Assembly (NCBI RefSeq): GCF_009931435.1
Contig: NZ_CP043414.1
Reading direction: 5' to 3' (one strand)
Source of the DNA: Escherichia coli
GTDB taxonomy: Bacteria > Pseudomonadota > Gammaproteobacteria > Enterobacterales > Enterobacteriaceae
Length of the DNA: 64,000 nt
This document shows positions 3,001 to 6,000 of this stretch, in pieces. How positions within the stretch are numbered: the stretch's first letter is position 1; every line of letters starts with the position of its first letter. A program made the position numbers.

Positions 3001-6000
3001 TCGCTACCCGCACAATTCGACGTCAGGCGGATTTACCGCATTTAATGATTGAACCGATGAAAGAGATGGCGGGATTTATCGTGATGGTTTTTCCCCTGGC
3101 CCAGTTTGTCGCCATGTTTAACTGGAGCAACATGGGGAAATTCATCGCGGTGGGGCTGACCGATATACTCGAAAGTTCAGGGCTTAGCGGCATCCCGGCG
3201 TTTGTCGGTCTGGCGTTGCTTTCCTCTTTCTTATGCATGTTTATCGCCAGCGGTTCCGCAATCTGGTCGATTCTGGCCCCCATTTTCGTACCAATGTTTA
3301 TGCTACTTGGCTTTCACCCGGCATTTGCGCAAATCCTCTTTCGTATTGCCGACTCATCCGTATTGCCTTTAGCGCCGGTATCTCCTTTTGTTCCACTGTT
3401 TCTTGGATTCCTGCAACGCTACAAACCTGACGCGAAACTGGGTACTTACTATTCGTTAGTTTTGCCCTATCCACTTTTCTTTTTGGTGGTATGGCTGCTG
3501 ATGTTGCTGGCGTGGTATCTTGTCGGTCTGCCGATAGGTCCGGGGATTTACCCTCGTTTGTCTTAAGAGAGAACGGATGCTGAGATTACTTGAAGAAAAA
3601 ATTGCCACGCCACTAGGTCCACTGTGGGTGATTTGCGATGAGCAATTTCACTTGCGGGCGGTTGAATGGGAAGAGTACAGCGAACGCATGGTGCAGCTGC
3701 TGGACATCCATTACCGCAAAGAAGGCTATGAGCGCATTTCTGCCACCAACCCAGGTGGTTTAAGCGACAAGCTTCGTGAATATTTTGCCGGTAATCTTAG
3801 CATTATTGATACGCTTCCCACTGCCACGGGGGGGACGCCATTTCAGCGCGAAGTCTGGAAAACATTACGCACAATCCCCTGCGGGCAGGTAATGCATTAC
3901 GGCCAACTGGCTGAACAATTGGGCCGCCCCGGCGCGGCGCGTGCCGTAGGTGCGGCAAATGGATCGAATCCCATCAGCATTGTTGTGCCTTGTCATCGGG
4001 TCATTGGCAGAAACGGTACCATGACCGGATATGCAGGCGGAGTTCAGCGAAAAGAGTGGTTATTACGCCACGAAGGTTATCTTTTGCTGTAAACATTAAA
4101 CAATTTGTGCCAGCTTGTTCACACTTTTATGTAAAGTTACCCTTAATAACTTAAGGGTTTTCAAATAGATAGACATATATTTACATCTAATATCGGAATT
4201 CTCTGCTGTTAAGGTTTGCTTAGACTTACTTGCTCCCTAAAAAGATGTTAAAATTGACAAATATCAATTACGGCTTGAGCAGACCTATGATCCCGGAAAA
4301 GCGAATTATACGGCGCATTCAGTCTGGCGGTTGTGCTATCCATTGCCAGGATTGCAGCATCAGCCAGCTTTGCATCCCGTTCACACTCAACGAACATGAG
4401 CTTGATCAGCTTGATAATATCATTGAGCGAAAGAAGCCTATTCAGAAAGGCCAGACGCTGTTTAAGGCTGGTGATGAACTTAAATCGCTTTATGCCATCC
4501 GCTCCGGTACGATTAAAAGTTATACCATTACTGAGCAAGGCGACGAGCAAATCACTGGTTTCCATTTAGCTGGTGACCTGGTGGGATTTGATGCAATCGG
4601 CAGCGGTCATCACCCGAGCTTCGCGCAGGCGCTGGAAACCTCGATGGTATGTGAAATTCCGTTCGAAACGCTGGACGATTTGTCCGGTAAAATGCCGAAT
4701 CTGCGTCAGCAGATGATGCGTCTGATGAGCGGTGAAATCAAAGGCGATCAGGACATGATCCTGCTGTTGTCGAAGAAAAATGCCGAGGAGCGTCTGGCTG
4801 CATTCATCTACAACCTGTCCCGTCGTTTTGCCCAACGCGGCTTCTCCCCTCGTGAATTCCGCCTGACGATGACTCGTGGCGATATCGGTAACTATCTGGG
4901 CCTGACGGTAGAAACCATCAGCCGTCTGCTGGGTCGCTTCCAGAAAAGCGGCATGCTTGCAGTCAAAGGTAAATACATCACCATCGAAAATAACGATGCG
5001 CTGGCCCAGCTTGCTGGTCACACGCGTAACGTTGCCTGATTCTTCCGCATAACTCACTATCCTTCTGTCATATCATTAAATTTTTCTGATTTATTGATCT
5101 GACAGAAGGTTCATCACTGTTTCATTCACCAGATATGGGTTAATCTTTTAATTACAAACTGCGTTGACAGTTGTTGTAAGGAGACCCTGTATGGCTATGT
5201 ATCAGAACATGCTCGTTGTTATCGATCCCAACCAGGACGACCAACCAGCATTGCGGCGAGCTGTTTATTTACATCAACGGATTGGTGGCAAAATTAAAGC
5301 CTTTTTGCCGATCTATGACTTCTCATACGAAATGACCACCCTGCTCTCCCCGGACGAACGTACCGCTATGCGTCAGGGCGTCATCAGCCAGCGAACAGCC
5401 TGGATCCACGAGCAGGCAAAATATTATCTCAATGCTGGCGTTCCCATTGAAATTAAAGTGGTCTGGCATAACCGTCCATTCGAAGCCATCATTCAGGAAG
5501 TGATCAGCGGCGGACACGATTTGGTGCTAAAAATGGCGCACCAACATGACCGTCTGGAAGCGGTGATTTTTACGCCAACGGACTGGCATCTGTTACGCAA
5601 ATGCCCAAGCCCGGTGTGGATGGTGAAAGACCAGCCGTGGCCGGAAGGGGGTAAGGCGCTGGTGGCGGTGAATCTCGCCAGTGAAGAGCCGTACCATAAT
5701 GCGCTCAATGAAAAACTGGTTAAAGAGACGATCGAACTGGCGGAACAAGTTAATCATACCGAAGTTCATCTGGTAGGCGCTTATCCGGTAACGCCAATTA
5801 ATATCGCGATTGAACTGCCGGAATTTGACCCGAGCGTTTATAACGATGCCATTCGTGGGCAACATTTGCTGGCTATGAAAGCCCTGCGGCAGAAATTCGG
5901 CATTAATGAAAACATGACGCACGTAGAAAAAGGTCTACCAGAAGAGGTGATTCCTGATTTGGCGGAGCACTTACAGGCGGGGATTGTGGTTCTGGGCACG

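Follow-up and report, generated by a model that had tools for sequence, protein, structure and literature searches.

A conserved, terminator-like hairpin at the end of fnr overlaps a candidate upstream element of the uspE promoter

Results

The fnr–uspE locus

The window (the whole stretch of DNA analyzed, 64,000 nt) comes from an E. coli strain other than K-12 and is 98.4% identical to K-12 over positions 4990–5240. Its gene order here is abgT, ogt, fnr (+), uspE (+), ynaJ (−), and ynaI. FNR is the master regulator of anaerobic metabolism in this organism's gene control, kept within a narrow range of levels. There are no indels in the fnr–uspE interval relative to MG1655, and coordinates can therefore be converted by simple subtraction: the K-12 coordinate (NC_000913.3) equals 1403813 minus the window coordinate. 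The two genes are delimited as follows.

4261, + strand: fnr transcription start (K-12 1399552; SMRT-Cappable-seq unit 1398698–1399552, reverse strand, PMC6131387 supplement)
4287–5039, + strand: fnr coding sequence, its stop codon ending at 5039 (ORF list; RefSeq annotation at E. coli loci that match exactly or almost exactly)
5191–6141, + strand: uspE coding sequence (ORF list and annotation of the E. coli locus)
6162–6188, + strand: canonical intrinsic terminator of uspE, a GC stem (6162–6181) followed by a T-run (terminator scan)

The fnr start has also been placed at −26 from the ATG (PMC2760140 supplement).

A continuous stem–loop downstream of fnr

An earlier note on this DNA described a wide-spaced inverted repeat between fnr and uspE. 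Its two 10-nt arms, CCTTCTGTCA at 5061–5070 and TGACAGAAGG at 5100–5109, lie where it had placed them and are exactly complementary. The spacer (5071–5099) is indeed 29 nt long and AT-rich (17% G+C) with TTGAT at 5094–5098, and the distance from the repeat to the uspE ATG (5191) is 82 nt, in line with the ~80 bp claimed. The wide spacing, however, did not hold, as the spacer is itself an inverted repeat and the element is a continuous hairpin rather than a wide-spaced dyad. A repeat search returned 21-nt arms that are 90% complementary (19 of 21 positions paired) and only 7 nt apart. The full stem–loop starts 22 nt past the fnr stop codon and spans 49 nt, with 21 pairs including two mismatches and a 7-nt loop; the original 10-nt arms form the base of the stem.

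5061–5081, + strand: left (5′) hairpin arm, the first-noted 10-nt arm being its outer half (repeat search and RNA fold)
5082–5088, + strand: hairpin loop, TTTTCTG (repeat search and RNA fold)
5089–5109, + strand: right (3′) hairpin arm, ATTTATTGATCTGACAGAAGG, with a nearly invariant core, TTTATTGATC; −64 to −44 of the uspE transcription start

RNA structure prediction agrees with this description: the + strand folds as a single continuous stem–loop. The predicted energy was −23.5 kcal/mol (z = −7.1) for the 60-nt segment that ends at the mapped 3′ end (below) and −25 kcal/mol (z = −4.7) in a 106-nt context. A bare perfect 10-nt inverted repeat with a spacer of ≤40 nt is unremarkable in this DNA (18 hits at 8 sites in the window, versus 2.9 ± 2.2 k-mer hits expected from dinucleotide shuffles). 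The form with 21-nt arms (≥19 matches, loop of 3–10 nt) occurs once in the 64 kb and in none of 100 dinucleotide shuffles. The exact 10/10 match of the arms is lineage-specific. At position 5102, G is found in K-12 and in about three quarters of the complete E. coli genomes, giving a U·G pair in place of the U-A pair of the window strain. The hairpin is a single-copy element, with one covariance-model match in the 64-kb window and a median of one place per genome across 5,398 E. coli genomes. At a permissive threshold, Rfam returned a sub-threshold look-alike of mir-1000 alone (22 bits versus a gathering score of 50), and this identity was rejected as spurious.

Covariation on the fnr sense strand

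A scan with one genome per species yielded 80 Enterobacterales fnr loci, the majority of which bear a hairpin at the equivalent place. Covariation was analyzed on 70 distinct Enterobacterales sequences aligned by MAFFT. Because RNAalifold predicted only 5 pairs on this alignment, the full 21-pair structure was tested explicitly by pair counting. Across the 70 sequences, 81% of the cells are paired, compared with 28–49% when the partners are slid by 1–3 columns, and 15 of the 21 pairs show changes on both sides. Double-change cells numbered 116, against 40 ± 11 after shuffling, and none of 500 shuffles reached the observed value, with shared ancestry left uncorrected. Covarying forms of the outer stem include GCCGGATC/GATCCGGC, GCCAGATC/GATCTGGC, and TGTGGGAT/ATCCCACA. 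Columns 20–52 carry A-U, G-C, and G-U pairs in 33, 26, and 10 sequences, and columns 13–59 carry U-A and C-G in 22 and 19.

The wobble pairs indicate the strand. G·U-type cells outnumber A·C-type cells by 154 to 64, which favors the fnr sense strand (again uncorrected for shared ancestry), and in the core stem (columns 16–30) a tally of the per-pair counts gives ~124 against ~25. The score of a covariance model was 67.8 bits for the + strand versus 19.3 for the − strand, and the model found no further copy in the window. The pairing, wobble, and covariance-model statistics agree in direction, all without phylogenetic correction. Judged from the aligned sequences, the compensatory changes and sense-strand wobbles point to a structured RNA within the 3′ UTR of fnr.

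The mapped 3′ end of the fnr transcript

The hairpin was compared with published transcript ends.

5115 (K-12 1398698), + strand: position to which the 3′ end of the primary fnr transcript maps (PMC6131387 supplementary file 3)

In the SMRT-Cappable-seq data of Yan et al. (2018), which describe full-length, 5′-triphosphate-selected transcripts, the fnr unit runs from 1399552 to 1398698, corresponding to 4261–5115 of the window (PMC6131387). The unit is present in two sections of the file, which were taken as the conditions M9 and Rich. The flag "novelTTS" on its end places it outside the experimentally known EcoCyc terminators (PMC6131387). The end lies 6 nt past the last paired base of the hairpin. 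The canonical uspE terminator served as an internal calibrator for this offset: the uspE end in the same dataset is at 1397626/7 (window 6186/7; PMC6131387), also 6 nt past its stem. A b1334|b1333 operon variant starting from the fnr start is recorded as well, and some transcripts thus read through from fnr into uspE (PMC6131387). The earlier note had offered a terminator-like structure of fnr as one meaning of the repeat. This part is borne out by the covariation on the fnr sense strand together with the published 3′ end, and the mapped fnr end does involve the repeat. The hairpin at the end of fnr is real, conserved, single-copy, and terminator-like, and it probably defines the fnr 3′ end.

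A canonical intrinsic terminator has a U-rich tract of ~7–8 nt immediately 3′ of the stem. Such a tract is absent here. The E. coli tail, UUCAUCAC / TTCATCAC, has 3 T in 8 nt; across the 70 sequences, the median is likewise 3 T in 8 nt, with just 6 of the 70 reaching ≥5 T, and the tract is not conserved. Because it lacks the U-tract, the fnr hairpin is not a canonical intrinsic terminator, and a consensus terminator scan did not call it. In the 40 nt downstream of the hairpin, C exceeds G (9.8 versus 4.8). The curated Term-seq list of Adams et al. contains no 3′ end in the fnr–uspE intergenic region (1398xxx), but this silence is uninformative because the canonical uspE terminator is also missing from the list. 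The Rho table of the same authors has no region on the fnr strand at 1398xxx, where uspE's own transcription confounds the measure. The TERMITe supplements have no entry for fnr or uspE.

Six loci have neither an adjacent uspE nor the long hairpin (L017, L021, L022, L036, L037, and L042; from Pseudocitrobacter, Kluyvera, Yokenella, Pluralibacter, and a MAG), and there a canonical GC stem with a T-run follows fnr. The stem of L037, GCCAGATTG...CAATCTGGC followed by TTTTTT, resembles a shortened version of the fnr hairpin. As canonical terminators replace the long hairpin where it is absent, some 3′ structure is always present after fnr.

The hairpin in relation to the uspE promoter

The uspE promoter has been mapped, and its elements lie just downstream of the hairpin.

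5117–5146, + strand: σ70 core promoter of uspE, with the −35 element CTGTTTCAT (5117–5125) and the −10 element GTTAATCT (5139–5146) (PMC2760140 supplementary file 3)
5152–5154, + strand: uspE transcription start, at −39 by 5′ RACE and −37 by 454 sequencing (PMC2760140), and at 1398659 (5154) by SMRT-Cappable-seq (PMC6131387)

A σ70 ChIP-seq peak at U00096.2 1396682–87 corresponds to about 5150–5155 of the window (PMC3688515 Tables S1/S2). When the hairpin is set against this mapped promoter, it occupies −92 to −44 of the uspE transcription start and is therefore outside the uspE mRNA. The −35 element starts 8 nt past the stem, and the fnr 3′ end falls at about −38 of the uspE promoter. The −35 and −10 blocks are both conserved across genera. 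A σ70 promoter scan of both strands over 4000–6400 returned no promoter-like site; the weak uspE promoter is known from mapping only. TTGATC was considered as the −35 of a second promoter and rejected, there being no acceptable −10 at 16–18 nt downstream. For the ACTG...CAGT pair conserved in the 5′ UTR of uspE, the predicted fold was no more stable than that of shuffles (z = 0.06). A literature search on the uspE promoter, an fnr terminator, and transcription factors that bind at uspE found nothing specific.

UP elements, the sites of the α-CTD, are A/T-rich and match a consensus within −40 to −60. At uspE, the A/T-rich sequence that is conserved is found further upstream, at about −78 to −54 of the start, and −53 to −44 is not A/T-rich.

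Conservation of the right arm upstream of uspE

The two arms differ in conservation. Information content is 0.95 bits in the left arm versus 1.35 bits in the right, the left being the more variable across species, and in linked genomes the inner positions of the right arm carry 0.6–1.8 bits more than their partners in the left.

5079–5104, + strand: block conserved upstream of uspE, made up of a remnant of the inner left arm, the loop, and the core of the right arm, at about −75 to −50 relative to the transcription start (aligned linked and unlinked uspE upstream regions; single copy in the window)

At eight unlinked loci, from different genera, 438–1985 nt of unrelated DNA separate fnr from uspE; one such insert, in Kluyvera, is a gene for an EAL-domain protein. 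At all eight, the homology upstream of uspE takes in the −10 and −35 elements, the right arm, and the loop (...ATTTTnCTGATTTATTGATCTGGCAAA...) and ends at the inner left arm. Among them, the right arm and loop stay at a fixed distance from the −35, with variable sequence in the interval. The left arm is lost in 7 of the 8, and only in L053 does the right arm pair with a new upstream partner. These uspE copies fold at −6 to −19 kcal/mol, versus a median of −22 for linked loci, and the hairpin is no longer formed.

The fnr-proximal hairpins of the unlinked genomes behave in the opposite way: pairing is kept and the right arm drifts (ATGGTT, TTGGTC, TCGATC, CCGATC, and TTGATT in place of TTGATC). 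Of 60 linked hairpins, 57 have an intact TTGATC, as do all 8 uspE-proximal copies, but among the fnr-proximal hairpins of unlinked loci only 5 of 10 do; the difference between linked and unlinked fnr-proximal hairpins has a Fisher p of about 0.001, uncorrected for phylogeny. In L009, L043, and L053, both outcomes are seen within one genome, where the fnr copy has drifted with compensation and the uspE copy has kept its sequence. The block was not found upstream of uspA, uspC, or uspD in K-12 (the best match had 7 of 18 positions mismatched).

The earlier note had also proposed a regulatory dyad in the uspE promoter. As a dyad this is not supported, with the left arm gone upstream of uspE at 7 of the 8 unlinked loci and neither pairing nor symmetry conserved by uspE, but the right half appears, from these alignments, to be a candidate uspE upstream element. 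The simplest reading of the comparative data is that two constraints overlap: fnr would need a hairpin of any sequence, and uspE would need the sequence at about −78 to −44, paired or not.

Discussion

Here, we propose an explanation based on the comparative data and the published transcript ends. The hairpin at the end of fnr probably sets or stabilizes the fnr 3′ end, and its 3′ arm and loop probably serve also as a constrained DNA block of the uspE promoter. The stem–loop is transcribed as the end of the fnr mRNA. According to the published mapping, most fnr transcripts end 6 nt past the stem and some read into uspE. We infer that the hairpin defines and stabilizes this end in one of two ways, either as a weak, U-tract-poor terminator or as a barrier to 3′-to-5′ exonucleases after termination further downstream. 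In either case, transcription into the uspE promoter would be limited. At the same time, as the comparison of genera suggests, the DNA of the 3′ arm and loop would be conserved in sequence as part of the uspE promoter, at about −78 to −44. With the right arm constrained by uspE, the 5′ arm would evolve to stay complementary to it in the compact fnr–uspE arrangement.

A stronger form of this explanation is conceivable but doubtful. In it, one 30-bp stretch would be selected twice and independently, as the RNA 3′ arm of the fnr hairpin and as a DNA upstream activating element of uspE, and fnr termination or read-through would be mechanistically coupled to uspE promoter activity. Initiation at uspE might, for instance, be modulated by polymerases that terminate at −38 or read through, or fnr termination could be helped by a factor that sits at −78 to −44 as a roadblock.

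One alternative is that the element is purely a 3′ structure of fnr, with the conservation of the right arm arising at the RNA level (for example, a site for a protein, an sRNA, or an RNase) or by an accident of ancestry and having nothing to do with uspE. All of the evidence for an RNA hairpin, namely the covariation, the G·U bias, and the mapped 3′ end, applies equally to this alternative; no uspE-side factor was found in the literature, and the block is not common to the promoters of uspA, uspC, and uspD. Against it stand the eight genera in which the right arm and loop hold their distance from the uspE −35 with fnr 438–1985 nt away and the upstream flank unrelated, and in which the DNA joining the right arm to the −35 varies. 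The fnr-proximal hairpins freed from uspE, moreover, lose TTGATC and keep their pairing. We regard this alternative as unlikely, and the shared use of the 3′ arm by fnr and uspE is preferred.

Less probable still is a palindromic DNA operator, with a dimeric regulator such as FNR or CRP bound to both arms of the repeat within the uspE promoter. The location within −92 to −44 of the uspE start would suit an operator, and a perfect FNR half-site, TTGAT, is present; 'ydaA' is among the FNR ChIP-chip targets of Grainger et al. (PMC1802558), and σ70 occupancy at uspE is O2-dependent (PMC3688515 Table S2). However, in TTGAT-CTGA-CAGAA the second half-site matches at 2 of 5 positions (CAGAA versus ATCAA), and the two arms, separated by at least 17 bp, face the other way from the half-sites of TTGAT-N4-ATCAA. 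Neither the FNR ChIP-seq peaks nor the predicted FNR sites nor the IHF peaks tabulated by Myers et al. include a coordinate in 13966xx–13967xx, the U00096.2 range that spans the hairpin (PMC3688515), and the ydaA site of Grainger et al. is inside the fnr coding sequence (window 4969–4992), outside the hairpin (PMC1802558). In 7 of the 8 unlinked uspE loci, the left arm is lost and the right is kept, and a G·U bias on the sense strand is unexpected for a DNA site. TTGAT is a lone half-site, does not belong to a credible site of the FNR/CRP type, and has no FNR ChIP-seq peak listed at it. Informal comparison by eye with the consensus sequences of FNR, CRP, IHF, Fis, FadR, DnaA, LexA, and NagC gave no convincing match. 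As a separate observation, the coordinate printed by Grainger et al. for the ydaA site is exactly 100 bp off from the matching sequence (PMC1802558).

A chance inverted repeat or a dispersed extragenic palindrome (REP/BIME/ERIC-like) without a locus-specific role has a negligible probability and is already refuted: about three perfect 10-nt inverted repeats with spacers of ≤40 nt are expected in 64 kb, but the form with 21-nt arms is absent from all 100 shuffles, the hairpin is syntenic and covaries across Enterobacterales, it has one copy in the window and a median of one place in the 5,398 E. coli genomes, and its Rfam match is only a spurious sub-threshold miRNA.

If the proposed explanation holds, the conserved 3′ structure contributes to finishing and stabilizing the fnr message and to how far transcription spills into the stress gene uspE. 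The comparative data suggest that a terminator-like hairpin can arise from the upstream element of a neighboring promoter, and that end-hairpins without a U-tract interconvert with canonical terminators in evolution. The annotation of the fnr 3′ end is refined, and no new field is opened. The fnr 3′ end was already in the 2018 supplement, without comment and flagged as a "novel TTS"; the dual use of the hairpin sequence is a modest new observation.

The fnr hairpin belongs to a known class of gene-end signal and is ordinary biology. Dar and Sorek (2018) described stable 3′ stem–loops without a U-tract at the steady-state ends of Rho-dependent E. coli transcripts, which they read as exonuclease barriers, and they predicted interconversion with intrinsic terminators by the gain or loss of U residues (PMC6061677). 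As in their cases, fnr has a stable stem–loop just upstream of a precise 3′ end, the hairpin lacks a U-tract, and C exceeds G downstream. The predicted evolutionary switch to T-run terminators is seen at fnr in related genomes. Their transcripts are Rho-dependent; Adams et al. list no bicyclomycin-sensitive region on this strand at fnr. In addition, the fnr stem, at 21 bp, is of unusual length and has an AT-rich interior, and it is followed by an active promoter rather than a free 3′ UTR. Compared with intrinsic terminators, the fnr hairpin is similar in its position just after the stop codon, in the transcript end 6 nt past the stem, and in its partial read-through, but it has no U-tract of 7–8 nt and is missed by a consensus scan. 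Overlapping arrangements of terminators and promoters in compact intergenic DNA likewise place two signals on the same DNA, here the end signal of fnr and the upstream part of the uspE promoter. The fnr–uspE overlap differs from them in being documented by a natural separation of function across genera.

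Variation and rearrangement at the fnr hairpin

The stem–loop at the 3' end of fnr consists of the following elements.

5061–5081 (+), left arm
5082–5088 (+), loop
5089–5109 (+), right arm

Window position 5102, in the right arm, is an A/G polymorphism among complete E. coli genomes. The A allele of the window sequence, which forms a U–A pair, occurs in about 1,277 complete genomes as well as in the present strain, and the G allele, which forms a U·G pair, is found in K-12 and most of the remaining ~4,121. Both alleles stay paired on the fnr sense strand only.

Among Enterobacterales fnr loci, sampled as one genome per species and numbered with an L prefix, unrelated DNA of 438–1985 nt separates the fnr stop codon from uspE in eight genera (L009, L021, L036, L037, L042, L043, L053, and L058); in Kluyvera, one such insert is an EAL/CSS-motif gene. 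The uspE-side breakpoint lies in the hairpin loop or the inner left arm in all eight loci, and the right arm is present as two diverged copies in four of these genomes. The hairpin region looks like a recurrent rearrangement point. In Pectobacterium and Samsonia (L075, L076, L077, and L082), a different hairpin is located just 3' of fnr (e.g., TTGACGCTGCCAC...GTGGCAGCGTCAA), and the usual right arm is reduced to a degenerate remnant (ATTTTGTTATTCTGCGGC) ahead of the uspE promoter.

The FNR site proposed for "ydaA" (= uspE) by Grainger et al. (PMC1802558), TATTTTCGATGGTGATGTATTTAC, maps inside the fnr coding sequence (window 4969–4992, − strand). Their printed coordinate, 1,396,756.5, is exactly 100 bp off from this sequence and lands on the hairpin loop by coincidence.

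The uspE promoter region and expression

A second group of insertions starts within the uspE −35 region, ~20–25 nt past the hairpin (approximately window 5125–5130).

L007, L013, L032, and L047 (Citrobacter spp., Escherichia sp. ESNIH1, and an Enterobacter MAG), insertion in the uspE −35 region

The junction follows CTGTTTCAATGA or CTGAATTCAG, and the text AAGACAATAG(C/T)GG is common to the inserts; in these four loci, the compared DNA ends before uspE. The inserts may represent an integrated island with the uspE −35 site as its attachment point. In E. coli Z247 (L003), a copy of the IS30-family element ISApl1 interrupts the locus precisely where uspE transcription starts (approximately window 5153/5154), between the −10 element and the ribosome-binding site, so that uspE is cut off from its own promoter.

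Close to the 5' terminus of the uspE transcript, a small inverted repeat, AACTG-N6-CAGTT (window 5158–5173), is conserved, with ACTGT-GGTG-ACAGT as its counterpart in other genera; its fold is no better than that of shuffled sequences (z = 0.06).

Loss of 6S RNA lowers fnr and uspE by almost equal factors (0.63 and 0.59, respectively; PMC2848244). This parallel fall is compatible with partial co-transcription, and it could also be a coincidence.

Autoregulatory box of fnr

Upstream of the fnr coding sequence, the known FNR autoregulatory box, TTGACAAATATCAA (window 4254–4267), overlaps the mapped fnr transcription start at window 4261 (K-12 1399552). This overlap is consistent with the published autorepression.
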